A stretch of DNA of 64,000 nucleotides from positions 1-64,000 of the forward strand of contig JAUCBJ010007194.1 of the NCBI GenBank assembly GCA_032718475.1, given 5' to 3'. The notes beneath the pieces were generated by a model, which searched no databases, was not told the origin of the DNA, and worked only from the letters and a program-made list of their open reading frames with translations. Of this stretch, positions 3,060 to 63,400 are shown piece by piece. Position 1 is the first letter of the stretch. Each line of letters opens with the position of its first letter. The DNA is from Nemertoderma westbladi (taxonomy: Eukaryota; Animalia; Xenacoelomorpha). Both the position numbers and the translations under genes were made by a program.

Positions 3060-3217
3060 TTAGGCGAGCGGGCGTCGCTGCCTATTTCTCCCTTGCCCCC
3101 GGACAGTAGGAGATTCTCAGCGCCGATGTACCGCTGTAGCTGTACTTTCGCCAACGACGTAGCTGTACAACGACAACGATAACCGGCACAAGTCACTCCA
3201 CTGTCCGTCCCAAAGGC
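3060..3217 (-). ncRNA. Conserved structured RNA element (long stem-loop plus second hairpin) upstream of the accessory ORF, copy A
   Basis: Stems cggacagt/actgtccg, ggag/ctcc, gtgccggt/atcggcgc and a 17-position stem with 16 pairs. Compensatory changes relative to copy B. Confidence 0.7.
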
Positions 3218-18800: not shown

Positions 18801-19128
18801 GGATGGTGATTGATCTACCTAAAGAGAGAGGGATGGTGATTGATCTACCTAGAGAGAGAGGGATGGTGATTGATCTACCTCGAGATAGAGGGATGGTGAT
18901 TGATCTACCTAAAGAGAGAGGGATGGTGATTGATCTACCTAGAGAGAGAGGGATGGTGATTGATCTACCTAGAGAGAGAGGGATGGTGATTGATCTACCT
19001 AAAGAGAGAGGGATGGTGATTGATCTACCTAGAGAGAGAGGGATGGTGATTGATCTACCTAGAGAGAGAGAGGGATGGTGATTGATCTACCTAGAGAGAG
19101 AGGGATGGTGATTGATCTATCCTGACCA
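12855..19128. repeat. 30-bp minisatellite, about 200 units (CTACCTAGAGAGAGAGGGATGGTGATTGAT)
   Basis: Directly visible tandem array with variable (GA)n length and recurring variant units. Confidence 0.99.
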
Positions 19129-30399: not shown

Positions 30400-30800
30400 A
30401 TACTTACCAGAACAGGCAATACATATTTAAATACTTGCCAAAACAGGCAAGGTGTATTTATATACTTGCCAAAACAGGCAAGGTGTATTTATATACTTGC
30501 CAAAACAGGCAAGGTGTATTTATATACTTGCCAAAACAGGCAAGGCATATTTACATACTTGCCAAAACAGGCAAGGTATATTTATATACTAGCAAAAACA
30601 GGCAAGGTGTATTTATATACTTGCCAAAACAGGCAAGGTGTATTTATATACTTGCCAAAACAGGCAAGGTATATTTATATACTTGCCAAAACAGGCAAGG
30701 TATATTTATATACTTGCCAAAACAGGCAAGGCATACTTACATACTTGCCAAAACAGGCAAGGTATATTTATATACTTGCCAAAACAGGCAAGGTATATAT
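30400..30800. repeat. 31-bp tandem repeat, about 13 units (ATACTTGCCAAAACAGGCAAGGTGTATTTAT)
   Basis: Period of 31 visible directly. Each unit contains the inverted pair CTTGCC/GGCAAG. Confidence 0.95.
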
Positions 30801-32399: not shown

Positions 32400-35300
32400 T
32401 TCGACATATAATTATAGGTCGATTAAAATGTGATCTGGAAGACAGCCTTACTCGCTGGAAGGCTGTCACTTCCAGAGAGACCCAGTCTGAGCGTCCCACC
32501 ACTGAAAACAGTGGCGAAACTAGTAAACACCCTAGTACCCGAGATAGTACACTAGAACTAGTAAACACCCTAGTACCCGAGATAGTACACTAGAACTAGT
32601 AAACACCCTAGTACCCGAGATAGTACACTAGAACTAGTAAACACCCTAGTACCCGAGATAGTACACTAGAACTAGTAAACACCCTAGTACCCGAGATAGT
32701 ACACTAGAACTAGTAAACACCCTAGTACCCGAGATAGTACACTAGAACTAGTAAACACCCTAGTACCCGAGATAGTACACTAGAACTAGTAAATACCCTA
32801 GTACCCGAGATAGTACACTAGAACTAGTAAACACCCTAGTACCCGAGATAGTACACTAGAACTAGTAAACACCCTAGTACCCGAGATAGTACACTAGAAC
32901 TAGTAAACACCCTAGTACCCGAGATAGTACACTAGAACTAGTAAACACCCTAGTACCCGAGATAGTACACTAGAACTAGTAAACACCCTAGTACCCGAGA
33001 TAGTACACTAGAACTAGTACCACTGAAAAGTAGTGTAGAGTATTGCCCTGATGAAGAAACATATCCTCACCATGTAATAGCCGCTGCGGCCTCGGTTCCA
33101 GTTGAGCCTTACAGGGATCCATTACTTAGCATTGCCAGTGGTATGTTGGGACCTATCTTCGAATCCATAGAGGGATATCTAGCAGAAATAGCTCGAGGAG
33201 GGCCAGAACCTCAGCAGGACTGCTATGGAGATGATGTAGATGAGATGGCGTTATTGATGCAGCAGCAATGTTGCCTCCCTAGTTTAGGAGAACCTTTAGA
33301 CTTGGGAGCAGCTCCCTGGAAGGATTTATACCGTCTAGGTGTTTCGCCGAACACCAAATACCCAGCCATCTGGAAACGATCAGCCTCGGGATATGTTCAA
33401 GACATATAGAAACTCACCAACTTACCTCCATCCTCACTTTGAGACGGCCTTAATAGTAGCGCCACTTCCGGTAATGCATTGCCAGCAGATACCCCTTCCT
33501 GTTGCTTGCCCAGTATAACAGATGAGCCGGAGAATTAATGAGATCTGTCAAGTTAGGGAGCAAACTGTCGATCAGCTAAAAGACTTAGAAGGTACTGTAA
33601 GATCTTTAGAAGGTACAGTAAGAGAACGCAAATCAGAGCTGCAAGAAGTACAACAGTAGATTGCTTTAGATAGCGATTGGCTAGTCAATATACAGAAAGT
33701 TATACCTTCTCCTGTAACTATATTGAAACCACCTTGGAATATATCTAATAATGCTCGAGGTGTAGAGCAACTGCATATATATATAGGGGCGAGAATATGG
33801 AGTCTTCTATAAACAATACCACACAGAGACCACCCACAATATGAATATATACATATAGCCTTTCTCCAAATGCCCACCCTGTTCTATGTTCAGAATATCC
33901 CCTGTTTAACAACATAATAGCGCAAGAGAGTTTAACTCGACAGATGGTTCGAACAGAAGCGCGACAATCGGTTTCAGTGAGGGAAGTCGTTAATGGAGAT
34001 GAAATGAAGTGGTTACCATTTAGCGAATATTATAAGGATACTCAGTTTTATCTAATGGTGAAAAACTTCGATTTCTCCTAGAATGTTTGGAAGGGCCACT
34101 GAAGTCAGGTTACAGCTGATCAGACAGGTCAAGGAAAAGAACCCGGAACATAAGGTTAGTGATTGGAAGTCCACCATAGAGACTGACTATTATATGGTTT
34201 CACTATCTACCCCTCAAGATCAGGATGGTAAGAACAGTATTATGCGAGTAAAACTTGTACCCATCAAAAACTTCGCGACCAGTCAAGCTGAATTATATGA
34301 TTGGGATGATGACAACTTTGCCCGTAAGTATAAAAAACCTCGATTTATGGTAGATTATCCTGGAGTTCAACTACTGGTAGGACAAAACACTCATGAGGCA
34401 TTAGAGATCTTAGAGAAGCGACCTGCAGATCCATGGCCTTTACACACCTACAGACATAACTGATCATGTGGAAGAGTGGAACTAATGACAGGTGGATGAT
34501 CAGCTGCAAATAACAGCTTCTAGCCGGACGTTTAATTCAGCAGACACTCCTTGGTGGGGAGGTAGTTGTTACAGACTCATACGTAGTGTGAAGACCGCGT
34601 TTCACTTTGTAGTGCCCTGCCGCGCGTATCTCACCAACAAACTCCTGCACACTTTTATGGAAATCGCCGCCTATCTCAATGAGCGACCGTTGATGCCAGT
34701 ATCGTTCGACCCGGAATCCCTAGAGGCGTTAACACCAGCGCACTTCTTGCTGAAGAAACCTATGGTCATGCTTCCCGTGTCTACACACGAGCCAGGGGAT
34801 GAATATCTTAAAATCAGACCTGGCAAATGATACAGTTGTTGTCTACTCCGTTTGCGACGCATTTCGAATGATATTATCTTCCCACGCTGCAGCTTAGAAC
34901 TAAGTGGTTCGCTCATGGTATTAATTGTAGACTCAGACCTCCCACGTAAGAGATGGCAAATCAGTCATATTATCGAGACCCATTTTTCAGACAACGGTTT
35001 AGTAAGATCAGTAGAACTCATAGTCATGAGACATAATCACAAGATGAATGGAATCGTATTTGAGTCGCAGCAACTCAACCACCCGATTGGTCGCCTGTGT
35101 CTGCTAGAGAGGGACCGATAGTTATCCGGTAACTACGGTAGACAAGAGACTATCCCGACAACCACCTCCCAGATCCAGTAGACCTACATGGATTCTATTA
35201 ACTCATTATTTACGGGAGCGGGTACATATTGTCTTTATGTCCCTTTTTATATTTCCTATGTATGCTGTATTAAGTAATTTTATATTACTTTAATTATTTT

Positions 35301-36560
35301 TATCTTTTTCGTTATTTTATAATTTAGTAGAATAATTACAAGTGTAATTATTTTGTAGTTTAGTGCAATAACGTATATACAAAACATATCTATGAATCAA
35401 ATTAGTTATTATAATATTCATATTATTTTATATTATAGTTAGAAATAACTTCACTTTCTCGTTGGTCTTCCTGCCCGAATATATTTAATTTATTATCTTA
35501 GTCTTTCCTATTTATAGGAACCCATACCTTGGTCTCACTGTCCTATCGGCTTAATTAAATAATAAGCCGACAGTGACCCAGTGAGAAATGTTATTACTGC
35601 AATTTATATTGTAAGTATTTATTAATATGTCTTGTGACCTATTGTCACTATTACCTAAGAACCTGCTATGCTTTAGGTACTATTTGGTTAAGTAAAGTAA
35701 TGGGAATCTCGCAAAGTTCAGATCCTCGTATCTCGGCTAGCTAAACCAAGCTCTGGGTAGACCTTGGAAACGACTTGCCTCTTCTCACTGATATTGCTTC
35801 GTGCGATACTGCTCTCATACCTTAGGCCTAAAATATTACGTATAGTAGGAGATGTCAATATAACAATGAATCTGTTAAAATATTTAACCAATTGAAAATC
35901 TAGTTGATTAAGATATCATGGAACTCACAGATATACTTAATGGACAAATTTTCTAGAATTGTTGGTTAACGTCCCCAGACATGTTCTGGAATAAATAAAC
36001 AAAATAATAAAATAAATTTTACGGGAATATTTTTATTGATTCATGCACCCTCATGGATATAATAAATTTAAAACACATTATTTAAAAATCCCGAAAATTT
36101 AAGATAAAATAAGTCACGGGAGCGGCGCTTGCTTCTTCCATTAAAACTTATTAAAATTCCCTGGCTTGTATTTAATTAATCAAGCTATTAAAATAATAAA
36201 AATCAAATTAATAAAAATCATTAATAAAAAGAGTAAAAATAGCCGAAAGAGTTACTATCAAATAACATACCAGATCTGCTTGCATGAAACATATTCTAAT
36301 TCTACCGCTAGCTTTGCAAAATGTCAACATAGAAACAGAAACGCTAGAAAGAATTAGAGCAAAAGAACAATAGAATGAATGTTGTTTCATTGAATAGCAT
36401 CATTGAGTGTAGTATCCATATCCAAGGCTACTCAACAACACCGTGACATTGTGAATATGTGAACATTGTGAATAACGGAAAAGTGAGCGTAAATGTGCAA
36501 AATGTTGGTTGACACGTATGTGTGTTTATCGATGAATGTTACTACTAAAGGCATAGTCTG
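32400..36560 (+). pseudogene. Old, internally deleted BEL relative (copy C): gag, protease-adjacent and integrase remnants plus 3' non-coding region
   Basis: PAIWKRSASGY, AQESLTRQMVRTEA, IKNFATSQAELYDWD, PWWGGS..LIRSVKTAFHF and IGRLCLLERDR match the copy A/B proteins. RT and RNase H are deleted. The 3' region is collinear with 53066-54430. Confidence 0.9.
32518..33019. repeat. 38-bp tandem repeat, about 13 near-identical units (CTAGTAAACACCCTAGTACCCGAGATAGTACACTAGAA)
   Basis: Period of 38 visible directly. Confidence 0.97.
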
Positions 36561-41323: not shown

Positions 41324-41473
41324 GGGGGGGGAGAAAATGCGCTACCCCCCGGTAGCGCATTTTCTGACCAAAAAGACGAATTTTTGAAACATATCCTATC
41401 TGATGCAGAATTTCATGCTGAATCCAAATATGGAAACTGTTTTCCCATATCTTATTATTGGACCTACTGATCA

Positions 41474-42710
41474 TGTAAAAGCTTTTGCGTAATTAGCCGG
41501 TTATTATCCCCGTAAAGTACTCTGTGGTTGGTTTACCAGGCATATAAAGGCCGTGTCCTTGCTGTACTGGTGTTTTGGAGGACATAAAAGCCATTTCTTC
41601 TGTATTTGTACTTTAGAGGACATAATCTGTAATTTCGTGACGTAAAAGGCTCGATACTCTTGAAAACAGTGTCGCTACCATGACGACGGCTAACGGCTGA
41701 TATTGCCACGTTGCAACTTTCTGTATCTGCCAATAGGATTTGAGTTAGTTTTGATTTCGACCTATCACAGATCTACTGAACTGAATTTCCTATCTTTATG
41801 CTCATTCTCTGTGGTGGGTGGAAGCCTTTGTAAATAAGGTTATTCTTATCAGTGTTCAGTGTTATGTTTTTGCCCAGAGCCTAAGTACCGGCTTTTGGCA
41901 CCTCCGTGTTTCAGTCTTTAGTCTTACATTAGTAGGCTCAATTATAGAACGTATATCTGTTATCTTACTTAATTATCTTAACTTAACTTAACCACTCACG
42001 AGTTACACAAGTTAGCTCATTCACTTAATAATCATTTATACATTAATATTACTGCTTTTACTGTCGGTCATTCATTATATTGGTTGATGAAATATTATAT
42101 CGGAATACTGATCAATAGTCAGACACCCCACCTTCTTGATATACTAAAGGTTAGAGAGACCGGTTACAGATAAACGATTGCGACCTATGTTGAGTGGTTT
42201 GAAGTGAATCTAATGCTATTTCATATGCCCAACATAAATTGTCTGTTGCTCTCTTTATACGTGACCAAATTTAGTGAAGGTCGGCAGATTAGTGTGCAGT
42301 ATTGTGCAGCATTGTGTATGAGTGTAACTGATAACAAAACATCTCCTAAAGAATGTGCCATATACGTGAATCTATAGCCTTTTCGTTGTGACTAGTTTAA
42401 GTCATAACTCTGTTTATATAAATAGAGCGCCACGTCCTAAAGGAACTGTTAATATTTCCCGAAAGTGAATAATATTTGTCAGAGATTATATATCACGATC
42501 AGTCGAATAATACAGTAGGCTTACACCATCAATCATTAAGCCCCGAACTCAGTCTCCCGGGTATATCCAACGGGTGAATGATTGCGCATAGACTGGCTTC
42601 GGCTAATGTAGTGTATCAAATACTCGTCATAGGCTAAAGACTATCTATCATCCAAAAGACATTCTAATTTTGGCAGGTTAAACTGTCAAAGGTCTTTAAA
42701 AGCGCAAACA
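41474..42710 (+). repeat. 5' LTR of copy B (1237 bp)
   Basis: TGTAAAAGC...GCGCAAACA. About 10 substitutions and two small indels versus the 3' LTR by manual comparison. Confidence 0.97.
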
Positions 42711-42727
42711 ATAACAGATATACTTCT
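42711..42727 (+). promoter_or_regulatory. Putative self-complementary primer-binding site (non-tRNA)
   Basis: ATAACAGATATAC immediately follows the LTR-terminal CA and is the exact reverse complement of GTATATCTGTTAT (41951-41963). Pairing extends through TTCT/AGAA across a 1-nt bulge. Confidence 0.75.
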
Positions 42728-42992
42728 GGATTGCGGTGTAAGCAATCTAGTCGAAAGTACCGGTTGACCGGTAACCAGTAGGCCTGACTGCCTGATCATC
42801 CGGACCGGTACCTACAACAGTACAGGTACAGCAGTATTATTCGATTGTGATCTATTGTATACTGTAGGCTGCCAGGGGAATAGGGATTGATCACCCCTCA
42901 TTCTTTTGTAAAGTTTACTTATTTCTGCAAGTTTTATTTGTTTGTAGGCCAGTATTGAACAGAAGGCGTGTAAACCTGATCAGATTGTACAG

Positions 42993-43565
42993 ACAATTTG
43001 TAGGCTGAGCTGTTGTCTGATTGCTGTTAAGTCTGAACGGATTGCAGTGTGTGTAGATCACCTGTCCGATAAAGAACGGTTAGGAAGTAGGGGCAGCGAA
43101 TGCTGTAAGGTAAACCCCCAATTAAAGAATAAGTCGTACTACTGGGTTAGAACGCATACTACCTAATTATTTCGGAGTCTGCATGTCCTGTAGTTTATTT
43201 AGGCTTGAGAGTAGTCTGCCATCGTTTAGTCTGTACTTTGTTTGGGTAAGTCTGTATGGGTAGCGTATAATTTTATTTAGATAATTTGTAGGCTGGATAG
43301 TTGTCTGGCTGTTATTAGGTCTGAACGGATTGCAGCGTGTGTAGATCACTTGTCCGATAAAGAACGGTTAGGAAGTAGGGGCAGCGAATGCTGTAAGGTA
43401 AACCCCCAACTAAAGAATAAGTCGTACTACTGGGTTAGAACGCATACTACCTAATTATTTCGGAGTCTGCATATACCGTAGTTTGTTTAGGCTTGATAGT
43501 AGTCTGTCAGTGTTCGGTCTGCATTTTGTTTGAGTAGTTTGTACGCGTAGCGTAATATTTATTAT
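42993..43565 (+). repeat. ~288-bp tandem duplication in the BEL 5' leader
   Basis: Two copies of aatttgtaggctg...tctgaacggattgcag...ctacctaattatttcggagtctgcat. Confidence 0.9.
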
Positions 43566-44499
43566 TCAGAGTTTATGCGATTATCCGCAACATTCATTCC
43601 CCAAGTTTGTTCCTACAGTAATTGTGTTTGTTATACATACCGCTATAGTTAAATTAACCCCGGTACTACACAGGCTGCTCGGCGTAGGTAAAGATTGGTG
43701 ATTTTGTGCACCGGTCACTCCAGCAGATACCGTGGTTCTTTTAGCTGTTCAAGTATTTTTAACTACTGATTATTTGTTATACAAGTACTTGTACCTAATT
43801 TAGGGTTTAGTGTACAGTACTTTCCGAAAGTAATTATTGTAGGCATTATATTTGTGTTGTAAAGTGGTTGATAGGCACGTTCGATTAGCTCTATTAACTT
43901 CTAGGTAGGAACACTCCGTGATACATAACGTAGAACCTATAGCGATACGGCTATAGGTCGTCAGGCGGTGGTATTTTCCTATCTGGACAACGCAGTGTAT
44001 TTACTACTACTTATTATTTCAAATACCGTAGTACCCTGTCCGTTGTAATAACCAGATTTCTAACCCTTTGTTAGGCTGGTTTGTAGACTTCTTGTAAAAT
44101 TACCCTAAAAATTCGTATTTTGTGTTTTTTGTAAATTTTTGTGTTTATTTAGAGATTGTAATCTCACCCGAATTGTACGTAATTTGTAGTATTAAGTAAC
44201 TTAGGTAAATTAGCATTAATTGTTTTAGTGTCCTATAAGTAACACTTCACTGAAAGCGCACCGCTTTGTGTAGTGATTACTCCCCAGAAATAATAACATT
44301 TATTTCAACATTGACAAAACCCATTAAAACGGGTATATATATATTATAAATCAACTCAAACGATTTATAAATAGTAGGCCTGCCATACAACAATTAGGTC
44401 TCAATATCAGTTGGACTACTGCTTAAATAACGGCAATAAAGTAAGTTAAAGTAACCAAGTAACCCTTAAAATTCAGAAATTCAGTTATTTAAAATAATT

Positions 44500-44885
44500 G
44501 ATATACCGGTATTTACAATAGGCTTATTATATTTATTTTTATAAATTTTAGGTTGAAATCATACCGGTATTCTGTAATTAATTCTAGTTTGTAATTATAC
44601 TTATATATATATACTATAAGTGTAAACTGCATACCGGTATTTACGATAGGCCTATTATCTTTATTTCTATAAATTTAGGCTGAAATTATACCGGTACTTG
44701 TAATTAATTCTAGTCCAGAACTATATATACTACAAACTGTAAGCTGTATACCGGTATTCCCGATAGGCCTATTATATATTTATATATATTTGTGCTAAAA
44801 TTATACCGGTATTCTGTGATAAACCTAGTCTGTAATAATACTTATATAGTTATATATACTATAAGCATACCGGTATTCTAATATA
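44500..44885 (+). repeat. ATACCGGTAT-anchored loose repeats in the BEL 5' leader
   Basis: About seven copies of the palindrome (A)TACCGGTA(T) in roughly three ~125-bp units. Confidence 0.8.
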
Positions 44886-45011
44886 TTATATATATCACGC
44901 TACACTGAGTAGCAGTATCGGTAATTAATTACTAGGCTAGCAGTTAATACTGAATTACTAGACTTGCTTAGACTGTAATATAGCAGTAGGCATTCAACTG
45001 TACTCACAAAC

Positions 45012-48000
45012 ATGTCTGATACTAAGCCGAACCTGTCAGACAGTTTATTAGATGTAACTATCTGCGACTCAGATAGAGATATAGAACCGTCTAGTCGTAA
45101 GTTCAGTTCACCTCCCACTGTGAGGAAGGTCATCCCTCCAGTAGTAATAACAGAACCTAGGCTGGTCCAACATCGTAGGTCTATCATAGGCACTCGAGCT
45201 CAGGTCAAGCGGGACCAAGAAGCAGCGGAACAGCAACAACCCGCGAGTCAAGAACTTATTCCTCAACGGCCCAGCAGCTCCAGTAGTGAGGATACTGTAG
45301 AGCTGACACCCGAGCGCGGAGCAGAGATGACGGATGTGGTTTACACGGATCCCCTTCTCATCCTTCCTGCAGCCGTACTCACTAGGTTATTGATTGCGGT
45401 GGAAGAACACCAGATCGATTGGGCGAGAAGTCAGCGATCAACTAGAGATAGTTATGCGGGATACACGGGGGAAGAACTGAAGTCTATTGTCGAGTCGCAA
45501 TGGAACTTCCCCGGACCCGGACTCCCGTTTGATTTATCAGAAGCTGCCTGGGAAGTCATACACCGGATGGGAGTAGCCAAGGAAACCATCGATCCAGCTG
45601 TATGGAAGAGGTCCGCAGCCGGATACGCACAAGGATTCTTCAGCTCTATGGAGCGAGTAGAAAAACAACTGTTTAAACAACCTCAAGGACCTCAAGAGCA
45701 GGGACAACTGCTTTATCAAGTTAGAGAAAGAATTCTGCGAATTAGGCTAATCTTATCAGCCTTTGAGGAGGCTTCTAAAAGAAGACAAGACACGGCGTTG
45801 CAAGTTGCCGTAAAGTCTTGGTTTCAACGGGTGAGTCGCTATGTTCAAGGAGCAGCTCAGTGGAAAGCTCAGTTGGAGGAGCGCTCAACCCAAGGAGAAT
45901 CAACGGACGCTACTTCTTCCCAAATGGAAAGTGAAGCGACGGCAGAGAAACCGCATAAGAAGGATGCCATTGACATTTATCTGTCAGACTATCAGCGTTT
46001 TTTAGGTGATGAAGAGTTGAGGAGAAGGTTAGAGGGGCTTAGCCCTAATAGTGAAGGAGCCCAGCGTGTGTTGGATGCAATAGATGTAGATAGGTTAGCG
46101 GCGAACCAAGCTAAATTCGATGAACAACTCCGCATCGCTAGAGAAAAGGAAGAACAAGTAAGGAAAAAACGTATAGAAGACAGAAAGAGAGCAGCCGTGG
46201 CAGAGGCAGAAAGAAAAGCGGCAGCGGCAGAGGCAAAAGCGGCAGCGGCAGAGGCAAAAGCGGCAGCGGCAGAGGCAAAAGAGGCAGCGGTGGCGGAAGC
46301 AGAACGGAGAGCAGCGGAAGAGATCACCCAACTGGAGTTGGAACATCTTCAAGAGAATCAAGACTGCATAAATAAACAGTTGACAGCTAGTAATATGCAG
46401 ATGATGAATCGATCTACTCCCAAAAGACAAGGTTATACATCATCTGAGGAAGGCGATACCACTGATACTGAAGGCAAAGGAAATGGATCTCGTCTAAGCC
46501 GACGTAAAAGAACATTCCACCGTCAGAAATTGCCTGATTTGCCTCCAGCTGTTAGAAGGCAACTAAATAACACCAACTTAGGCAGTACAGAACCCACAGA
46601 CCAAATAATTAAAATAGAAAGACTCCCTACTATAGTAGATGAGCCTGAAATAATTAGGCCTGTTCTCGAAATCACCCCTTCGGTGATGGACACACCTGTA
46701 CTCCCCGAAGTTACCTCTAAATTCCCTCTGCATAGCACTAAGCTACCTGTGCCCCGTAGAACTGCCCAGGAGACAGTTCAGGTCCTGGATCCCGAGCGAA
46801 ATATTCATGATTTGTCGCCCGTTGTCCCTCGTCTGCCCGCTACGACGTTGGCGGATCCCGTTTCGGCGGTTGATTGGGTGGACGAGAGACGACGGGGGAT
46901 GGATCTCCTGCTCGGGCAGATGCAGGAGACTGTTCAGCAATTCAGGGGCACAGTAAGGGAAAGTAGACTAGAGTTGCAAGAAGTGCAGCAAAGTATCACG
47001 CTCGAACGCGATAAATTAGTAAATACACAAAAGGGTATACCACCATCCCCTGTAACAATGTGTCAACCTGTTAGGTCTGAAGTATCTCATGCGCAAGGTG
47101 TGGAGCCTACACGCATATATACTGCTAGCGAAGTAGAAACTCCTATAGTGAACCCTATTAAGGGTAATTATAGACCTGTTGATAATGATATTCCATATAG
47201 AACTGATCATAATCCGAGAAATTTATATACCGATAACTCGATATTAAATAACACGATGGCCCAAGAAAGTTTTACGCGTCAAATGGCTAGAACCGAAGGC
47301 CGGCAAGCGGTGAAGGTGGGAGAGATCGTCAAGTTCAATGGAGATGAGATGAAATGGTTACCTTTTAATGAATATTACAAAGATAACATACAGAACTCTG
47401 TACTATCTAATGGAGAGAAACTTAGATTCCTCATCGAGTGCTTGGAAGGATCTCCCAAGTTAATGGCGTTAAAGTTTATTGGACATCCAGACGGATTAAG
47501 ACAAGTTTGGGACACACTAAACATCAGGTATGGTAATAGGAATAATATCGCTAAGTATTTATATGCAAAATTAGTAGCGCCCAGAAAGTTCATCAGCAGT
47601 GGGATAATAGAGTTTTCCGATGAGATTCAAGAGATCTGTAGACAATTAGATTGGTTAGGTAAGTCTCATGAATACCAAAGTTCTATGGTCATTGGAGCTG
47701 TGGCTTCTACTTTACCGAAAGGTGGGGTAGGCACACGCTGGGATAAGAAAGTACTATATATGATGGAACAACAACGACGAGACCCTACCATGGCTGATCT
47801 CATGTCATTCCTAGATGGAGAAGTGAAATTACAGCTCCTGAAACTGTCTAGAGAGAAGACACCGGAAAACAAGGTAAGTGAAAAACCCGTCTCTAGGAGA
47901 AAGGTAACACCAGTGTGTTATACAGACGACAGCGAAAGCCAGACTTCTCAAGGAGAAGATAGCGGGAAAGACACTGATAGATCTTATTATGTCAATAAAA

Positions 48001-51000
48001 TGCCTAAAGATCAGGTGAGTAAATTCAAGTCTCGAGCAAATGACAGGAGAGAACAGGTAAGAAAAACTCCTCCCACGTCTCCCAAGAGAATTCCGGTGAG
48101 AAAGCCCGAAGAAAAGGCAAGTGTACACAATGTGACTCAAAATAAGGTAAGTAACATCAAACCGAAATGTGTGCTGTGTGACGGGACCCACCGTTTGAAT
48201 ATGTGTGATGAATTCCTGAAGAAGTCATTAACGGAGAGACGCGAAGTCATGTGGGATAAGCGGTTATGTTATAATTGCCTCAGGCAAGGACACCAACGGC
48301 GTACCTGTTTCTCTGACATAAGGTGTGCAAAGTGTGGTGCGAAACATCATATCCTGTTGCACACTGAATTCGAGCGAAATAGTCCAAATCAGGTAAGTGA
48401 TTCCGAGCTACATGTCCAATTCAGTGATGTGAACGACACTGATCAATCTGAGATGGAAGGATTCTACACAGACGAGTTCTCCGACGAAAACGAATCCTGT
48501 TACATGATAAATACCGCAGTGTATCGAGCGCTCAACTATGAAAAGGATACAGACAACGACTTCACTCTAACTACTTCTGAGCGACAACCATCTTGGAAAG
48601 AGCCATCTTCCAATGTAGGGATCCGAGAGTTTCCTGTGGTGCAAGTAAGGGTTCACGGACCTAAGAGGAGTTATGTAGTGAACGCCCTCCTTGACTCCGG
48701 TAGTACAGGAACATTCATCGACAAAGAGCTAGCCGAAGATATATTTGCTGGACAACTCAAGTTCCAAACTAAGCTCAACATGTCCGGCATTATGCAAGTT
48801 TGGAAATCTACAATCACAGCGGATTATTATGTAGGAGCGTTGTCCACCCCCCAGGACGAACTAGGAGAACATAGCATAAGGTCAGTGAAAATGGTGGCTA
48901 TAAAGAACTTCGCTACTACTCAAGCAGACCTTTATAATTGGGACGAGGATGAGAGCATCCAACATCTTAACATACCTCGATTCCAGACTGATTATCCTGG
49001 AGTGCAAATACTCATCGGCCAAAACGCGCATGAGGCGCTGGAGACATTAGAGAAACGGCCTGCTCAACCTCAGCCCCTACAGACCTATGCGGTAAGAACT
49101 AGAGTAGGTTGGTACTTTACTGGCCCTTCCCGTAGAACACTCAGAGAAAGACTACCGCAAGAGAGAGTCTGCCAGGTGAGTGAATGGGAAGATGATGCTA
49201 GTGAGGGAGACGATTCAACTGAGGGAATTCCATACTCCTCAGATAACGACGACGTTCACCAGCTTTTTGATGAAGAGAATACCATCGATCTCCTTAAGGA
49301 AAACGAGGCTTGGCAAAACCAAGTTAACTTATGTCAACTTCTCTATCCATCTGAACGAGAAGCTTATAACGACGAGTTAAATGACGTCATTGAGCGTCAT
49401 AATGCCAAGACTCGGGATGAACATGCCGTACGATTCTTTACGCAAGAGGCGGTAGAGCCCAATTCCTACGATAAAGCCTTGTCGGTGGAAGAGGAAAGGG
49501 CCAAGTAGATCCAAGAGACAACTACACGTTTCCTCAAAGATCAAGGTAGGTATGAAGTCGGTCTACCTTTCCGCAAGAAAGAACCGAAGTTCATCAATAA
49601 CAGACCTTTGGTGGAAAAAAGAATCGCGCAACTCCATCGACGCCTTACGGCTAATTCTTCAGCTAAAGCAATGTATCAAACACAGCTGGAAAAATTTATT
49701 AGTAAGGGATACGCGGAGAGAGTACCGGAAGAAACACCTGTGACAGAAAGAACGTATTACTTAACTCACCATTACGTTCCTAAACCCGGTAAGCCACACG
49801 AAGTGAGAGTAGTGTTTGATGGCTCCGCTCTTTACATGGGTCAATCCCTTAACTCTGAATTGTTACCCGGACCCAACTTACTTCAATCTTTGTTGGGAAT
49901 TCTTTTAAGATTGAGACAATATTCGATTGCTTTCGCCTCCGATATAGAAGGCATGTTCTTACAAGTCAAGGTGCTAGATAGGGATCGAGATAGTCTAAGA
50001 TTTCTGTGGTGGCCCGAAGGAGACCTCAACCAGAAACCGGTGGAGTACTGGATGACCATCCAGGCCTTTGGGATAATCTCAAGCCCTTCCAACGCCTGTT
50101 CGGTAGTGCGTACCACTGCAGAAGACAACCGAGAGGCCTTCTCTAAGGAAGTGATCGACAACATCAAGCGGGACATATACATGGACGACAATCTGAAGTC
50201 CCTGCCATCAGTTGAGGAAGCCATTGAGGTCGCTAAAGGAACGGTAGAGAGCTTAAAAAGAGGTGGGTTTCGATTAACGAAATTCACCAGCAACTCCCGT
50301 GAGTTTCTGGAGTCGATCCCTGCGGAAGATCGAGGAGCGAAAGATCTCGATTTGATCAAAGATGATCTGCCAGAAACCAAGACACTCAGCTTGAAATGGG
50401 ACACAGAGAGAGATATCCTGTTTTTCCAACTAAAACAGCGAGATAATCCAGTTCGAACCAAACGGATTTGTTTAAGTATACTGAGCACTTATTTCGATCC
50501 ATTGGGATTTATTAGCCCAGTTATATTGATTGCTCGTAGTTTGGTACAACAAATGTGGCTTGAAAACCACTCATGGGACGATCCACTTAAGGGAGAATTA
50601 TTAAAGAAGTGGATGAAATGGGAAGATTCTCTGCCAGCTATCGAGGATTTTATAATTTCCCGTTCATATTTTGGTCATGTTCTCCCTACGTATTCCTATC
50701 AACTCCATGTGTTTGGAGACGCCAGCGATATGGGAATAGGTATAGTAGCCTACCTAAGAGTGGAAACTCCGGATGGAATCAAAGTCGCCTTGGTTACTTC
50801 TAAGGCATTAATCAACAACAAGTTGAAAGTTCCTCGAGCGGAGTTAAAAGCTGCTCTATACGCTACAGCCATCGGCCGGAATGTAACAGAACAGATTGAC
50901 TATCCATTAGAGAAAACTGTCTATTGGACCGACGCTTTACTCGTGTTAGAGTATATAACCAATGAAGTCTGTCAGTTCAGCGTCTTCGTTACCAACAGAG

Positions 51001-53065
51001 TAGCCATCATACTTAGTCGCACGACGATGGACCAATGGAGACATTGCCCCGGAACGATTAATCCAGCAGACATCGCTTCCCGAGGAGCGACTCCAAAGGA
51101 ATTGGTAAATACTCCTGAATGGTTAGGTGGACCCGACTTTCTCTACCGAGAAGAAGAAGAATGGCCTCCCCATCTCACAACAGCAGAGATCAGACAGGCC
51201 AAGGGAGCGGAGAAAGTTAAACCCAAAACTCGAGCGAGTAAATCGAAGTTGTTTAAACCTGCGGTTGATCTATCTGTATTATTTACTTCCGGAGAGGATG
51301 CTTTGGATCAGAAACCCACCGCCACGACTAAAGAAATCTTGGAAATCCGTGACAAGGATTGGAAATCTGGAATACCAGATATCGCGCAAGGACTCTCACC
51401 TCTCTTGCAGAGAGCGATACGTCACTACAGTTCCTGGAATCGGCTCTGTAAAGCTGTTAGCCTATTTGAAACGATGTTTTCATCATCGTTACTCCGGAGA
51501 CAAAGACCAATAGTGATGATGCTCCATCAACATCTGCACGAGTCCATGTTGTTAAAGATCTTCCTAAATACAAGATATCCGACAGGTTTCTAAAGGAAAA
51601 GATCAGTTACCAGGAGCATGATGAAACCAACAAACAGATGCTGAGACTCCTACAATGCTATGAGGATTCCGATAAGTATTTCCTGTTGTTAAGAAATCCA
51701 CAGATGCGCTTAAGGGATCGCTTCTCTAGTACCATGATAGATGGGTTAATACGTGTTGGAGGTCGGCTCACCAACGCCCCGTTATCCTTTGACACTAAGT
51801 TTCCCATACTCATTAGAAATCTTGATATACAAATCAAGATGATTGTAGATGTTCATAGCAAACTGTACCATGCTGGTAGAGAACGAGTTCTGAGCGAAAT
51901 TCGAACTCACTACTATTTTTATAAACCCCGTAGGGCTCTGAACCAAGTTCTTAGGAACTGCATACCCTGTAGGAAAGCATTCAGTAGGCCTTTGACACAG
52001 CGAGAGGCAGAATTACCTAGGGAAAGAGTAAGCTTCTATGAACCACCCTTTACTAATACCGGTGTGGATTTATTTGGCCCTATTGAAGTATATCGTGCCC
52101 GGACTATAGTCAAGAGATGGTATGTCATCTTCGTTTGTATGACTTGTAGAGCTATCCATCTCGATATGGTAAACGATCTATCCACCAACAGCTTCGTGTT
52201 GAGTTTACGACGACAGATCGCTCGTTTCGGAACCAGTAACACGATGAGATCGGATAAGGGAACGAACTTCATTGGCGCCAACAACGAAATTCAAGCTTAC
52301 GTAAAGGACTGGAACAAGAGACAGGTGGACGATCAGCTAAGGATAACAGCGTCTAGCTGGACCTTCAACGCCGCCGACGCCCCTTGGTGGGGAGGAAGTT
52401 GGGAGAGATTGATTAGGAGCGTGAAGACTGCGTTCCACTTTATTGTGCCTTGTCGCGCTTATCTCACCGACGAATTATTGCGGACGTTAATGGAGAAAAT
52501 CGCCGCCTATCTCAACGAAAGACCGCTTATGCCAGTCTCTTCAAATCCTGATTCCCTGGAAGCGCTAACACCCGCGCACTTTCTACTGAAGAAGCCCGTA
52601 GCCATGCTCCCACGATCGGAGATCACAGACGGAGACGAGTACTGCCGTCGAACCTGGCAACTTATGCAGTTGCTATCCCGTCGTTTCGCTGACCATTTCG
52701 AGAAACATTACCTGCCCACTCTACAACTTCGAACTAAGTGGTTTGAGCAGCAAGAAAACGTCAGCGCTGGAGACATGGTGCTTATTGTGGACCCCGATCT
52801 CCCACGTAAGCGATGGCAAACAGGTCGTATCATCGAGACCCATATCTCGAGCGATGGTTTGGTGCGATCAGTAGAACTCGTCGTCATGCGGCGTAACTTT
52901 AAGAAACCAGGGATAGTCTTTGAGACTCAACAGCTCAATCGCCCAGTGGGTCGTTTATGTTTACTGGAAAGAGACAGAGAGCTCTCCGGAAACTATGGAA
53001 GGCAAGAAATTCTTCCCACGACCACTTCCCTAATTCAACCGACATCTAGGGACTCCCCAACTTAA
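45012..53065 (+). pseudogene. BEL/Pao gag-pol of copy B, disabled
   Basis: Same domains as copy A plus the full gag N-terminus with an (AAAAEAK)n coiled-coil repeat at ~46190-46320. Premature TAG at 49506-49508 (CAG in copy A) and two +1 insertions near 51460 and 51500. Confidence 0.95.
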
Positions 53066-54503
53066 TATCGTTCGGAGTGGGCGTGTGACTCTATTATTTT
53101 ATATTATTTTATTATTTTTATATTTATGTATGTATTACTATGTAATTTTATTATAATCGTTTTATTTAATTTAGTAGAATATTATTTAGCGATTATTTAG
53201 TAGAATAGTGCAATATATTAGTGTTTATTACGTACGTAATTACTTATATTATATTTAGTGAGACGGCGAAGAAATAATTATTTTTTCTCTTTCCTTACTG
53301 TCCGTATTATATTATAAATACGTAACTACAGTAAGATGAAATGTCCGTACTTATTAAAGTACAATAAAGCCACTACTATATTAAAGTATTATTGGTAGGC
53401 AGAGTATTAGGAATGCAAAGTTCAGATCCTCGTGTCTCGGCTAAACCAAGCTCTGGGTAGACCTTGGAAACGACTTGCCTCTTCACACTGACATTGCTTC
53501 GTGCGATATTGCTCTCATACCGTATATTAAATAATACATATAGTAGCGTGATGTCCCTTTAACAGTAGCGTATAACGCGAAATAAATCTGTTAAACCCTT
53601 TGACCATCTGTAATTCTAGTCGATTAAGATATCGTGGCACCCACCGATATACTTGAAAGACAAATTCTAGAATCAGTGGTTAACGTCCCCAGACAAGTTC
53701 TGGAATATACTGGTGCCCATCCTAAATATTAATTATTAATATTTACAAAAATCTGTCAAATATCAGATCCTTTAAAATTCTAGTCGATTAAGATATCGTA
53801 GCACTTACCGATACTCTTAAAAGGACAAAATTCCTAGAATTAAGGATCCTATGTCCCCAGACCTGCCTTGGAATCAAATTGTGTCAATTTAACATTAAAT
53901 AATAAAATTTACGGGAATGAATTTAAATTCATATATTTTAATGAATTTAATAAATTGCAATTTTATGCAATTTATAACATTCCCAAAATTCCATTAATTA
54001 ATAGATCATGGGAGCGGAGATTCACTCTATTAAGTGTATTTGTGTGTGAGAATCTCCAATGTATAGTCAATAGCCGATAAAATTCATAGAATCATGTATA
54101 AAGGGGATATTGACCATTAAAGAATTACTATTAAATAGCATCCCAGATCTGTATGCATGAGAATTACCCTAATTCTACCGCTAGCTTTACATAATGTCAC
54201 CATAGCAACAACCACGCTAGAATTAGAATTGAGTTAAAAGAACAATAGAAAGCTTGTCCCATTGAATAGCATAGGAAATAAATAGTGCACTGATAGTATC
54301 CAAGGATACATAATAATACAGTGACATTCTGGAAGGCATTGACTAACGGACAAGTGACCCGAGTGTGTGTAATTTGTGACAAGTTGTGTGTGTGGTATTT
54401 GTGAGTTTATAGGCGAATGTTACTACTAAGGTGTGTTTACAGTAGCGAGTCGCAATTGTGAAAGTAACCCTAACTCTCCAGTAAGAACCTGAGGTGTATC
54501 TAA

Positions 54504-54659
54504 GCCTTTGGGACGGACAGTCGAGTGACTTGTACCGGTTGTCGTTGTCGTTGTGCGGCTACGTCGTTGGCGAAAGTATAGCGGCGACGACACATCGGTG
54601 CTGAGGATCTCGCACTGTCCGGGGGCGGATTGGGGTAGGCAGCGACGCTCGCTGGCCTA
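54504..54659 (+). ncRNA. Conserved structured RNA element upstream of the accessory ORF, copy B
   Basis: Stems cggacagt/actgtccg, cgag/ctcg, gtaccggt/atcggtgc and tgtcgttgtcgttgtgc/gtatagcggcgacgaca (17/17 paired, 5 G-U), then a taggcagcga/tcgct-g-gccta hairpin. Confidence 0.7.
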
Positions 54660-54703
54660 AATATAAACTCATTATAATATTAATAAACTCATATATAGCA
54701 GAT

Positions 54704-56037
54704 ATGACGGAGTTGATAGAAGACGGTCTTGGTATCAGGGAGCGATATAATCTACTTTCAAGCGTTTGTTGATAGCTTGATAAGCGGTGATACTAGTCCA
54801 ACTACTACGAAGGATGATGGTTGATGGTTGTTATATCGAACCTACGATTTCCTGGAAGTAACTTACGCGTGAATTGGACTATGGAAAATTCACCGCTCGC
54901 TACACGCATTGTAATGGTATGTATATGGACTTCTTAACCATTGACCATTCTATCGGTTTACACGATACGGACTATGTCGAACATATCCTACCCAGAGGAG
55001 TCGAAACGATAAACCAAAATTCTAATGCGAAAATCCTATTCGAAATCGACTCGAAAGAAAAGACATTAAAGAAACAAATAAACGCGGTAACTCCAACATA
55101 TATTTGGAATTCTTGATAGAAGCATTGTAACAACAAATAAATATCATCCGCGTTTCCCCTACAAGACGTGCGTCTTTGGTATTATTACGATAAATGCCCT
55201 AGACCCAGCCAATAAACGGAAAGACATAAACATCCACGGAAACGTTGTGTTAAACACAGTTGTGCTCGTTATATTTACTGGAGTTTCGAGCGAAACTTGT
55301 TTGACATACAACCTATGCTCACTCGGCTCGAACGATCCTGGAGTAAACCTACGATCAGAGTCCCGGAATACTCGGTCAAACCTCCTCATTCCTTAGTTGG
55401 ACCTCAGACCTGCGATCCTGGTGGTGTCGCGGATCCTCGCGGACGGTATTCACTGTTCAAGATCTAGTGCTACCCTAACAATTAATCGGTAACACTCCGA
55501 CAGTGATTTCTAGCTAGCCGCCCATCTTACCTAGCCGGATTATGACGCGGACACCTAATATCACTATCCAACCGTATGGTCGTCCCGTTTAACGCGATAC
55601 AACCCTTCATCAAGGTGAAGGAGAGCGTTGTACGAAACGAGTTAAACGCTATTCTATAAAGATCAAAAAAGAAACCTGCGTTTGTTCAGATAAACGTAAG
55701 TTATAACAGTAAGTCCAATCGATAAACGAATTGGCCTTATCTCAGTTCGATTGGGAAATCTCGAATCTCAAAGAAGATATCAAGCTTAGAAAACCCTATT
55801 CTCTGCGAGAGTTTTGGACGAACGTATCCCATGACAAGCGGAGGAAAATCAGCTCGAGGAGAAGCATATCGAAATGGACGAGACACCGACCGTAAACCCA
55901 AACCTTCTAATGCAATCATATTGCACCCTTCACCCAGGAGTTATGGCCCTCCTAGTAAAGTGGCTCCCCCCAAAGAGAAAAAGACTCTTGCTAGCCTCAA
56001 AAAACTGCGTAAACGCCGTCTGCGCAAGAAAGACTAA
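54704..56037 (+). pseudogene. Degenerate accessory ORF region of copy B
   Basis: Start is homologous to the 132-aa ORF. The last ~42 codons (AIILHPSPRSY...KKLRKRRLRKKD) are homologous to the end of the 591-aa ORF. The middle ~0.8 kb does not align to copy A by eye. Confidence 0.65.
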
Positions 56038-56115
56038 CTGTTTAGAGTATCTTTATATTTTAGAAACTGTGATTTGTTATATTTTATAGACTTAAATCCC
56101 ATTTTCTGGGAGCGG

Positions 56116-57346
56116 TGTAAAAGCTTTTGCGTAATTAGCCGGTTATTATCCCCGTAAAGTACTCTGTGGTTGGTTTACCAGGCATAAAAAGGCCGTGTCC
56201 TTGCTGTACTGGTGTTTTGGAGGACATAAAAGCCATTTCTTCTGTATTTGTACTTTAGAGGACATAATCTGCAATTTCATGACGTAAAAAGCTCGATACT
56301 CTTGAAAACAGTGTCGCTACCATGACGACGGCTAACGGCTGATATTGCCACGTTGCAGCTTTCTGTATCTGCCAATAGGATTTGAGTTGGTTTTGATTTC
56401 GACCTATCACAGATCTACTGAACTGAATTTCCTATCTTTATGCTCATTCTCTGTGGTGGGTGGAAGCCTTTGTAAATAAGGTTATTCTTATCAGTGTTCA
56501 GTGTTATGTTTTTGCCCAGAGCCTAAGAACCGGCTTTTGGCACCTCCGTGTTTCAGTCTTTAGTCTTACATTAGTAGGCTCAATTATAGAACGTATATCT
56601 GTTATCTTAATTATCTTAACTTCTTAACCACTCACGAGTTACACAAGTTAACTCATTCACTTAATAATCATTTATACATTAATATTACTGCTTTTACTGT
56701 CGGTCATTCATTATATTGGTTGATGAAATATTATATCGGAATACTGATCAATAGTCAGACACCCCACCTTCTTGATATACTAAAGGTTAGAGAGACCGGT
56801 TACAGATAAACGATTGCGACCTGTGTTGAGTGGTTTGAAGTGAATCTAATGCTATTTCATATGCCCAACATAAATTGTCTGTTGCTCTCTTTATACGTGA
56901 CCAAATTTAGTGAAGGTCGGCAGATTAGTGTGCAGTATTGTGCAGCATTGTGTATGAGTGTAACTGATAACAAAACATCTCCTAAAGAATGTGCCATATA
57001 CGTGAATCTATAGCCTTTTCGTTGTGACTAGTTTAAGTCATAACTCTGTTTATATAGATAGAGCGCCACGTCCTAAAGGAACTGTTAATATTTCCCGAAA
57101 GTGAATAATATTTGTCAGAGATTATATATCACGATCAGTCGAATAATACAGTAGGCTTACACCATCAATCATTAAGCCCCGAACTCAGTCTCCCGGGTAT
57201 ATCCAACGGGTGAATGATTGCGCATAGACTGGCTTCGGCTAATGTAGTGTATCAAATACTCGTCATAGGCTAAAGACTATCTATCATCCAAAAGACATTC
57301 TAATTTTGGCAGGTTAAACTGTCAAAGGTCTTTAAAAGCGCAAACA
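56116..57346 (+). repeat. 3' LTR of copy B (1231 bp)
   Basis: Direct repeat of 41474-42710. Confidence 0.97.
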
Positions 57347-58223
57347 GATCAGTTTATAAGACAACTTCATGTCTACGGAATGAAGACGGGACTCGAATAA
57401 GCGACTCTGCGGTCTTTGCGGGATTACACGGAATAGACTTATCGGTCATCGGAGATCTTCAAAATGTATAATCTCCAGTTCTAGTGGTCGTACGAAGTTC
57501 GTTTTAGGCTCATTCGAAAGCTCTTTTCTTAGAGAACAAAGTTACCATTTGATTTAAGACAAAATGGTTCTAAAGCAACATAACATGAATTTTGATAAAA
57601 TATGCCTTGCAAATTTTGTTCAAGATATGATTGCTCCGGCACCTTTCAAGAGTTTGCCAAACCAAATGGTAACTTTGGTCTCTGAGAAAAGAGCTTTCGA
57701 ATGAGCCCTAAACGAACTCCGTACGACCACTAGAACTGGAGATTATACATTTTGAAGATCTCCGATGACCGATAAGTCTATTCCGTGTAATCCCGCAAAG
57801 ACCGCAGAGTCGCTTATTCGAGTCCCGTGTTCATTCCGTAGACATGAAGTTGTCTTATAAACTGATCAGTAGGTCCAATAATCATAAAAAAATACCTTCT
57901 CAATTAAAATTTTGTGCTCTTTCTCGTGGAGACATCCAATTAGCACCACTGAGCACAGAAATTTGCAGAAATTGAATGCAAACCCCAAACTTTATCGCCT
58001 TACCGATATCGCGATATATCGGAGCCAGTCTCTTCTATCCCAGATATCTCGAAAAGTAAGCAATATATAGGAAAACGGTTTCCATACTTAGATTCAGCAT
58101 GAAATTCTGCATCAGATAGGATATGTTTCAAAAATTCGACTTTTTGGTCAGAAAATGCGCTACCCCCCCAATTGGAGTAACTCGGTCTTATCATCATTCA
58201 TCTTTAAGGGGGGGGGGGCCCCC

Positions 58224-60477: not shown

Positions 60478-63400
60478 TCAGTATCGCCTTGCGAGCCCCA
60501 CCCCACGGATCCCAGCCCCATCCCCAAACCCTAACCCACGCCACGGACGCCGCCCACCACGGAGGCAGAGGGAGTTGGACCGGAGGAGTGCGAATTGCAG
60601 CCGCCGGCGAACACCCCCCAGCACGCACGCGAGGCCCCTCTCCCGCATACCATCTCGCCTTGCCACGAGTGACTCTGCGAGATGGCGGATAAGGATCTGG
60701 GCCTCGGTGCACCAGACACCGTCAGTGGTGCCGACCAGGGGGGTGAAGGCCATTCTCCGGTCCTCGCAGACGGTGCTGTAGTGGCGTTTCTTATGCCGGC
60801 ACCGCTCCTCAAGCAGTGACTCGGTCGAACGGTTGGCCTGGGCATACGAGGTGGCGTCAGCGTTAATTAACGAAATATCAAACGACGCCACCCATTGATT
60901 GGCCCTGACCCCCCGAGCAACCAAGTCAGCTCGCACTCCCCCTACTGCCCAGCCATCACGGTCCAAATGACCTTGGGCAAGGGTCACCTCTCGTTCCACG
61001 CTCGATGGCCCAACCACCGAGGCCAACAACTCTCCAAAGACCTCTCGCACCTCATCATGGCGCTTAATGATCAGCCCGCCAGACTTGCAGCTCAGTGCGT
61101 GTGAGGTGGAGAAAGACTCCCCACAACCCTCGCACTTTGCTGGAAGACCTGGCGGGTCAAGGCCATAACGGAGAGCCAGGTTGTCCCTGAACTAATCCGG
61201 GCTGAGGTCCGTATGATCAAGGGCTGATGGCTGGGCCGTCAACCAACCCCCAGTCTTGTTATTAACGGTTCGTTCCACCGTTCGCCGATGTCTTGTTGGG
61301 AGTGCCACCACTGCAACCTCCTGCTTCTCCTTGTACAGGATGTCCTGGGCAATGCGGCTCTCCTTTAGGACCTCTGATAGCTGAGCGTTGTGGTCGGGGA
61401 CGTTGAGGGACAGTCCCGAAAGGTTACAATCGATGTCCCGCGGGTAGATGTGTCCCGAGCTGGGCCCTTCCGCATCAGCGGGTCCCGCAGACCGACTCCT
61501 CCATGCTGCGCCGGGAGGAGAACGAGATCCTCGTCGGCCTCGTTCAGGCGGGTTCCGAAGAGCGCAGGGATGTAGGTCTGCAGCAGCGCCGTCCGGATAG
61601 GGGCGATCTCACTGTCCTCCGTAGGAACAACCCGAAGGAGGTAGTCCCATTCGGCCTGAACACACCGGGACATCCCGGTGTGCGCGGTCTGGGGGTACAC
61701 TTTGCCCACCTCTGCGAGTTTCCCAACATTCGACACCCAGCCAGACACCTTTTTGGCTACGAACTGTTTCCTCCCCGACGCTGCCCCGATATAATCACCC
61801 AGGAAACGCTGACCGGAAACAACCTGGATCCCCCATGGCCCGAACATCGCACGAGCCTCGACTTCGAACTCAGGTTTTACCACCAGGAAACTCTTGGGTG
61901 CCTCTGGGTTATAGCCTATCTTAGGGCCCTCCTGGCAGAGTTCGCGCCACCAGCACCACACCCCGTACAGAGTGCCAGCCGACGAGGCATCGTCGGCATA
62001 CCAGCACTGGCGCTGTGATGGGGGGCTAGGTGATGTAGATGGCTGGGGGCCGGGGTCCGGTGGCGGACCGTGGGGTGGCGACGGCTGTGGGCCGGGGTCA
62101 GGTGGCAGACTGCAAGATAGCGGCATCTGGTGGCCGCGGTCCGGTGGCAGACCGTGTGGTGGCGATGGTTGAGAACCCGGGAAAGGTGGCAGACAGTGAG
62201 GAGGAGCCGGTTGAGAACCGGTGTCAGATTGGAGACTGCGATGTGGCGACGGTTGGGAACCGGTGTCCAGTGGCAGACCGCGTGGTGGCGACGGTTGAGA
62301 ACCCGGGACGGGTGGCAGACCGTGCAGTGGCGACGGTTGAGAACCGGGGTCAGATGGCAGACTGCGAGGTGGCGACGGTTGAGTACCCGGGTCAGGTGGC
62401 TGACTGCGATGTGGCGACGGTTGGGAACCAGTGTCCGGTGGCAGACCGTGCAGTGGCGACGGTTGAGAACTGGTGTCCGGTGTCACACCGTGTAGTGGCG
62501 ACGGTTGAGAACCGAGGTCAGGAGGCAGACTGTGAGGTGGCGACGATTGACCCCGAGTCCCGTGCAGCAGTGGAGACAGAGCACTGGGGGTGTGCAAACC
62601 TGGGTCTTGAACAGCCCGCAACCTCCTGATCATGGGGAGAACTCCACACCCATAGCCTAGCATAGCAGCTGGATCCCCCTGGGTCCACCCTTCCTGGCTC
62701 CACAATGGCTGGTCGCTGCCGTCGAGGAAGAGAGCCGCGTGGCCATTATATGAATTGAACAGGAAGCGCGAGGCACGATGCCAAAGAACACGGCAGTTCC
62801 AGAGTGCAACAGGGCGACTGATGCTATTAAAGGCGTTGCGAGCATCGACAAGCAACATCGCCTCGGTCCCGTTTTCCTCAAAAATTGAGGACATGGCGTG
62901 AATGGCCCCTTCAATCCCGGCTTTGACACCGGCACACAATTGGTCTGCCCCGCACTCTTTGGAGATATCCGCCTTCGTTTTCAACGTGGTGCAGTTGGAA
63001 AGGAGACGATATAGCACCTCACCAACCCCAATGGGGCGGACACCGGGCTCCTTGTCGAGTGCAACAAGCCGACAGGCCCGTAGGGCCCTAATCTCACCCC
63101 ATGGGACAATGGTGTTAGCGAGGCGGCGACATAGTCCAGCAACGGCTTCACGGAGGCGAGAGCTGTGCGCCTCATAGCGTGTGAGGATTGCGTGCCAGAA
63201 TTCGGCGTCCCCGCCGATGGGACCGGCACTACCACAGAGTTTCCTGGCAACCTTTAAAACAGTCTGTCCTGTAACATCCAGGCCCTCAAGGGGAGGGAGT
63301 TCGTTGCAGGGTTCGAGAGAGTCTGGGGAGGTGGGCATCTGAGGCGGGTGTTTCAGCAGGAGGACATCCCGAACCGTCACACCCTGTGGCTGACCCTCCG

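Follow-up and report, generated by a model that had tools for sequence, protein, structure and literature searches.

The window analyzed here, a 64-kb stretch of a Nemertoderma westbladi contig, contains a 15.9-kb long terminal repeat (LTR) retrotransposon of the BEL/Pao group (41474-57346) that probably starts reverse transcription in the manner of Tf1, from a front piece of its own RNA cut out by RNase H. The 5' LTR is not followed by the site that a transfer RNA (tRNA) primer would need, and the bases at that place complement a segment of the LTR itself. Self-priming of one kind or another is strongly suggested by this arrangement, which recurs with other letters in distant BEL/Pao families. 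With less assurance, we lean slightly toward a wider reading, in which a broad branch of marine-animal BEL/Pao elements would have abandoned tRNA priming for a primer of about 11 nt from the front of their own RNA; this primer would mostly be assembled when a very short first exon is spliced over an intron in the LTR, and the window family would encode it in one piece.

Complementarity at the LTR edge

The right end of the 5' LTR at 42710 is set by the 3' LTR and by the target-site duplication, and the boundaries given in the original prediction hold, with GATCA on both sides of the element. From the first post-LTR base onward, 42711-42723 is the exact reverse complement of 41951-41963 within the LTR. 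The register at the LTR edge is exact, with no spacer, and the 13-nt partner occurs only once more in the window, in the 3' LTR at 56593. No TGG directly follows the LTR, as had been claimed; none lies within 15 nt, and the nearest is at 42727. The zero spacers at the primer site and at the polypurine tract fit a blunt cDNA. Matches of 13 nt or more at the first base arose in 1 of 20,000 dinucleotide-shuffled LTRs (3 of 20,000 with offsets 0-3), and the analytic estimate is 0.9-1.3e-4, which reproduces the earlier figure of about 1e-4. Matches of 11 nt or more were obtained in 30 of 20,000 shuffles at offset 0 and in 81 of 20,000 at offsets 0-3, and that length is reached at 11 of 27,900 positions in the flanks and 3 of 2,170 in the leader. 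The word at 42164-42176, formerly proposed as a weaker alternative partner, proved to share the sense of the primer site itself. With the LTR partner it forms a duplex (-10.9), but not with the primer site (-1.8), and it is thus a competitor, not a second primer.

Variation within the family was read from public contigs, whose summed depths are not copy numbers. In a wide comparison, 12 of its 68 indels and 40 of its 220 substitutions were listed, and a narrow comparison over 41895-42005 covered four runs from three samples. The element belongs to a high-copy family, the contigs of which cross the LTR/leader junction with the same primer-site core and show no variant at 2% or more in the LTR partner. 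An extra T behind 42720 accounts for 10,492 of 13,339 depth in X1 (six contigs), 9,827 of 15,546 in X3 (three contigs), and 0 of 3.55 in X5; X4 has no coverage at the site. Since this T is carried by most of the depth and is unmatched in the LTR partner, the perfect duplex of the family is 11 bp (42711-42721 with 41953-41963), and bases 12 and 13 of the duplex are particular to the window copy. The claimed 13-nt complementarity is therefore exact in the window copy, with its second instance in the 3' LTR, and the claimed one-bulge extension to 17 bp does fold there, at -18.7 kcal/mol, but neither length applies to the family as a whole.

Between 41895 and 42005, 41925 is the sole position substituted at 2% or more, so that 41926-41964 has none; X1 shows, by comparison, 139 variable places in 1601 bases at 3% or more, a soft contrast given that the contig sets differ. 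In all four runs contigs come loose behind 41964-41975, many of them matching the window up to there and then running into unlike low-complexity sequence, and contig joints run from 41962-41969 to 41996-42044. Diverged family members thus part just behind the 41963 end, so that the partner closes the low-variation block. The variability behind 41964 could stem from slippage in simple repeats. X5, contigs from a sample guessed to be RNA, has no coverage over 41940-42101 and carries no weight either way.

Some side observations concern the same LTR. Position 41925, the only polymorphic site of the block, falls at the degenerate position of a word resembling a branch point, and a TAG 20 nt behind this word (41923-41947 in all) could serve as a splice acceptor; it lies 5 nt ahead of the partner and has no strong donor upstream, and any role of trans-splicing is speculation. 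One X4 contig (depth 14) joins the leader end at 42807 (42787-42807) to the LTR from 41932. This single observation may represent a deleted derivative or a mis-jump product; a jump from the predicted cut would join at 41964 rather than 41932. A TATA-like word at 42415 was rejected as a candidate; it depends on a base absent from the 3' LTR and from most of the family depth.

Distant BEL/Pao relatives

A query alignment of 40 polyproteins yielded 67 loci in metagenome contigs, where the best 80 of 638 confirmed stretches were kept, and 16 in genome contigs. Among these 83 loci, 34 have a direct repeat around the coding region, and 13 of the 34, in which divergence of the two copies fixes the right end of the 5' LTR, were kept before any pairing test. 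Of the rest, eight had a fixed left end only and were set aside; the other 13, contig overlaps or non-LTR repeats, were removed. Within the retained set, the right end of L035 is set by the contig end at ACA, the LTRs of L006 and L082 do not end in CA, and the searched segments of L005, L013, and L020 began somewhat ahead of the true LTR. GT..AG junctions with consensus donors were admitted after short matches had been seen behind a pyrimidine tract and AG in several loci.

Under these rules, 9 of 13 loci find a partner of 10-15 nt in their own LTR, a length that none of 180 cross-pairs reaches. With one sister dropped, 8 of 12 families do so and again no cross-pair among 132 (permutation p ~5e-6); primer sites that were reversed or shifted get no further than 6 in the 12-family test. 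Two of the eight pairing families match contiguously, like the window element; in the other six, the match exists only across a splice junction within the LTR. GT..AG introns of 71-451 nt lie in the LTRs of L005, L009, L020, L035, L069, L070, L071, and L074, and their junctions recreate the complement of the primer site, the first exon supplying just 3-9 paired bases. In most relatives, then, the partner exists only in RNA, which argues for a role at the RNA level. The window element's own LTR has no strong splice donor, and allowing splicing gives no better match there. The sisters L069 and L070 differ at two of three first-exon positions, and their primer sites have changed to match. Co-variation, proposed in the original prediction as a check, is accordingly found among distant families and in this sister pair, where complementarity is kept with changed letters, but not within the window element's own family, in which the extra T at 42720 goes unmatched.

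For the eight relatives with an unfixed LTR end, choosing the best-pairing ACA gives junction matches of 10-11 nt in seven. Choosing the end by terminal inverted repeat alone fails to recover the pairing in these eight; the ACA matches are post hoc, and two of these relatives are kin of primary loci, so they were not counted as proof. Of the 15 pairing relatives, 13 have GT or AT at the start of the paired site, and the remaining two have GT one base in; AT starts the site in the window element and in Tf1. This common start hints at a shared cut preference. One relative, L013, has a TGG site resembling tRNA-Tyr, the sole tRNA-type site among the 13. After position 4678 of L082, the first five post-LTR bases are those of the window element and of Tf1, with no LTR partner longer than 5 nt.

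Kinship was assessed with a tree of reverse transcriptase and RNase H (91 sequences, FastTree, midpoint root) from which nine loci with short hits were dropped and which holds no named clade references. The window element forms a long branch, so the relatives support the mechanism by analogy and not by close descent. No relatives were found among viral contigs. The 16 loci L068-L083 are BEL/Pao elements on contigs from prokaryotic genome bins; several have LTRs, and target duplications flank some. These contigs are probably host-animal DNA that was misbinned.

A predicted self-primer and its alternatives

In the mechanism that we propose, transcription would start at 41953 or up to about 40 bases upstream, and the RNA front would fold onto 42711-42721. 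RNase H, whose acidic motifs are present in the element, would then cut behind 41963 and free the primer, as in Tf1. The new RNA 3' end would be extended from 42710, and the strong-stop DNA would jump, at the cut site, to the 3' LTR copy. This scheme makes a sharp prediction: DNA beginning at 42710 would be joined to a capped RNA fragment whose end lies at 41963. RNAs folded from starts at 41913-41953 give the core pairing an ensemble probability of 0.75-1.0, long-range folds of such size being weak evidence. The initiator-like TCAGT noted earlier at 41911 is present; an extract of PMC3601003 quotes the initiator consensus as TCAKTY. Seven of 9 primary families have a CA step within -3..+2 of the 5' end of the partner, against 2.2 expected (p 0.001, post hoc), as do 11 of 13 overall, against 3.1 expected, with AA, AC, and CC likewise raised. 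Such CA enrichment is as expected if that end is the transcription start.

Several results weigh against this mechanism. The window element has TA and CG in place of a CA step at the partner's 5' end, and no excess of TATA is seen at -24..-36 from the partner (2 of 15, p 0.40), with none in the window element. RNAs starting at 41851 or 41858 lose the core pairing, and in the best single fold from 41913 the partner is bound to 42331-42365 instead. Within the window element's family, no LTR-partner insertion matches the extra T at 42720, and no compensatory change was found. Among the 12 relative families, contiguous matches of 10 nt or more occur in only two (L006 and L045); L071 pairs over 11 nt with one mismatch (scored 8), and L065 and L082 have neither a tRNA-type nor a self-complementary site. 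In the tree, the window element has no close relative and falls in a weak group (0.89) with divergent sequences that include the tRNA-type L013. Start site, cut, and primer are all predicted rather than observed. The absence of TGG, the register, the invariant partner, and the 8 of 12 pairing relatives nevertheless support well the original claim of tRNA-independent priming, but no TATA stands at the spacing that Tf1 predicts.

Mature tRNAs, with their CCA end, require TGG at the primer site, and at the LTR edge this TGG is absent (tRNA ALTERNATIVES). Binding of a tRNA to the TGG at 42727 is hardly credible. It would leave 16 extra bases past the integrated end, far more than integrases trim, and one X3 family variant lacks this TGG. 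The site at 42727-42738 does share TGG and six more bases, across a 2x3 mismatch, with the complement of the Leu(AAG/UAG) entry, by eye the nearest in the portion of PMC13524379 supplement 1 that lists about 190 tRNA 3' ends; in that list, which does not represent N. westbladi's own tRNAs, no end matches the first five bases of the site, and the positive control was found. Only marginally more credible is a chance complementarity in an AT-rich LTR, the true primer site having been lost in a broken copy. The family-level match is just 11 nt (p 0.0015-0.004), the feature was picked out among many scanned, and the window copy carries a stop and a frameshift. Against chance, the family contigs keep this core where they cross the junction, the partner is invariant, and the cross-family test is strongly positive.

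Two further explanations are unlikely, though less so. The element might prime itself from the 3' LTR copy of the partner (56595-56605), either because the RNA 3' end lies there or because the 3' copy pairs, loops the RNA, and is then cut. The partner is indeed present in both LTRs. However, neither AATAAA nor ATTAAA occurs in the window element's LTR. Relatives have AATAAA 0-87 nt behind the partner, so that their poly(A) site falls past it, and this argues against an RNA 3' end as primer. In intron-bearing relatives, moreover, the 3' copy would have to remain unspliced for the intron to be inherited, which would favour the 5' copy. It is likewise improbable, by a shade more, that the pairing is structural, serving the control of packaging, translation, or strand transfer, and that a cellular RNA such as an internal tRNA fragment is the primer. 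Half-tRNA priming is known in Ty1/copia lineages, according to passages of PMC6317226. Yet a fixed host RNA would not track the post-LTR letters, which vary between families and still follow their own LTR, and a structural helix has no reason to start 0-3 nt from the LTR edge and to measure 10-12 bp in most families. Priming by the 5' front of the element's own RNA thus stays the reading that we favour.

Element architecture and known systems

The Pfam domains of the element follow the BEL/Pao order (DUF1759, Peptidase_A17, Integrase_H2C2, DUF5641), and the set expected of Belpaoviridae is present in order: gag (DUF1759), protease, reverse transcriptase, RNase H (Peptidase_A17), and integrase with DUF5641. 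The element matches 2061 database proteins at E <= 0.001, and the 120 listed all carry PF05380; the best are BEL/Pao polyproteins of 39-45% identity, the named ones mostly from marine invertebrates. An in-frame stop (49506-49508) and, near 51.5 kb, a frameshift disrupt the window copy. Rfam gave no match within 41400-57400, and ARAGORN found no tRNA in the 64-kb window. The features are collected in Table 1.

Table 1. Positions of the retrotransposon's features in the 64-kb window
Feature	Position	Strand	Remarks
Left target-site duplication, 5 bp (GATCA)	41469..41473	.	identical bases recur at 57347-57351
5' LTR, 1237 bp, TG..CA	41474..42710	+	98.7% identity with 3' LTR; 10 substitutions and 2 small indels
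Low-variation LTR block ending at partner	41895..41964	+	single substitution at 2% or more (41925) and single minor insertion (41908), 4 runs
Initiator-like word TCAGT.., candidate transcription start	41911..41916	+	motif scan
Four extra bases, pairing with 42724-42727 across bulge	41946..41949	+	duplex fold
Predicted self-primer, 11-nt core (13 nt from 41951 in window copy)	41953..41963	+	exact complement of 42711-42721
Hypervariable low-complexity stretch directly behind partner	41965..42040	+	both inter-LTR indels here
Weak copy of primer-site word	42164..42176	+	competes for LTR partner, not alternative primer
Primer-binding site core	42711..42721	+	adjoins LTR, zero spacer, first bases not TGG
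TGG-starting word, 16 nt from LTR	42727..42738	+	rejected as working tRNA site
gag-protease reading frame	44979..49508	+	DUF1759 E 6.6e-11; terminates at in-frame stop
Reverse transcriptase and RNase H reading frame	49509..51593	+	Peptidase_A17 E 2.5e-36; YMDD and three acidic RNase H motifs
Integrase reading frame, different frame	51470..53065	+	Integrase_H2C2, DUF5641
Polypurine tract, zero spacer to 3' LTR	56108..56115	+	
3' LTR, 1231 bp, TG..CA	56116..57346	+	second copy of LTR partner at 56593-56605
Right target-site duplication (GATCA)	57347..57351	.	matches left copy

The leader, 2.3 kb long, holds a tandem duplication of 288 bp as well as short repeats (~120 bp) at 42995-43554 and 44502-44880. 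A second copy of the same family (94.5%) lies on the minus strand at 1-10606 with an unbroken frame of 2021 codons. Its 5' side is interrupted by unrelated sequence that by eye resembles a non-LTR element, and its 3' LTR is truncated by the window edge; lacking the 5' LTR and the primer site, it allows no co-variation test. Between pol and the 3' LTR, this copy has an extra frame of 596 codons (101-1891, minus strand) with several Cys/His clusters, which found no Pfam match at E 0.1 and no usable ESM Atlas match, and of which the main element retains only the final part (55885 onward). A third, degraded BEL/Pao relative occupies 33905-36550 (~70% identity in pieces), and tandem arrays with units of 30, 31, 38, and 42 bp lie at 12852-19119, 30400-30798, 32518-33019, and 62138-62550.

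The element shares with Belpaoviridae such as Tas, Achilles, and Sinbad the domain set and order, the TG..CA LTRs, the 5-bp target duplication, and the polypurine tract. It is longer, at 15.9 kb, than the 4-10 kb given in the Belpaoviridae profile of the International Committee on Taxonomy of Viruses (PMC8742986). That profile, which calls Belpaoviridae replication "poorly understood," has these elements primed by tRNA at an 18-nt site that complements the 3' end of a host tRNA, in line with the original statement that BEL/Pao elements are regarded as tRNA-primed, and an excerpt of PMC4580426 assigns Achilles a tRNA-Tyr site. The window element differs from both in having no tRNA-type site at the LTR edge. 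The 18-nt site is a descriptive trait, and membership rests on Pol. In the searched text of the Sinbad paper (PMC554778) the terms "PBS" and "tRNA" are absent, as are primer, PBS, and tRNA terms in that of PMC3118150. No report of BEL/Pao self-priming was found among literature listings and the beginnings of abstracts, as the original prediction had supposed, a scope outside which lie subscription journals, Repbase Reports, and GyDB, where prior mention is possible. In the parts of PMC6317226 and PMC2864245 that name both "Bel-Pao" and "self-priming," the latter is discussed for gypsy or copia only. The feature itself is real, and the mechanism is a known one, in a superfamily for which we found no description of it.

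The closest functional parallels are Tf1/Tf2 (Schizosaccharomyces pombe), Tj1 (S. japonicus), and the Tf1/sushi and Tcn1 chromoviruses (Ty3/gypsy, Metaviridae), in which the primer site likewise adjoins the 5' LTR and complements an LTR segment. The window element shows the same arrangement over about 11 nt and in the correct register. Its 11-nt duplex equals that of Tf1, for which an excerpt of PMC7175516, citing work by Levin and by Lin and Levin, gives a primer length of 11 nt, and the first five bases of the two primer sites are the same, judging from a passage of PMC11042837. The window element nonetheless belongs to a different superfamily, with BEL/Pao domains, no chromodomain among its Pfam matches, and no Pol of the Ty3/gypsy type that would make it a Tf1/sushi chromovirus. 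The loop from partner to primer site measures about 750 nt, and in most relatives the partner is formed by splicing. Start and cut have been demonstrated for Tf1 and are predicted for the window element. Failing primer-site searches on BEL/Pao elements would be explained if the proposed mechanism is true, and BEL/Pao RNase H would be able to cut an RNA-RNA duplex. The plant Ty1/copia elements TAR, Houba, and Osr-1, for which sections of PMC6317226 report self-priming predicted from sequence, differ in being copia and not BEL/Pao; they lie outside the Tf1 group and so provide, on those sections, a precedent for independent origin. If the broad-branch reading is true, the BEL/Pao mechanism would have arisen separately from those of Tf1 and plant copia, in contradiction to the current description of Belpaoviridae. 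Should the self-primer be real, tRNA-free initiation would have arisen in all three major superfamilies of LTR retrotransposons.
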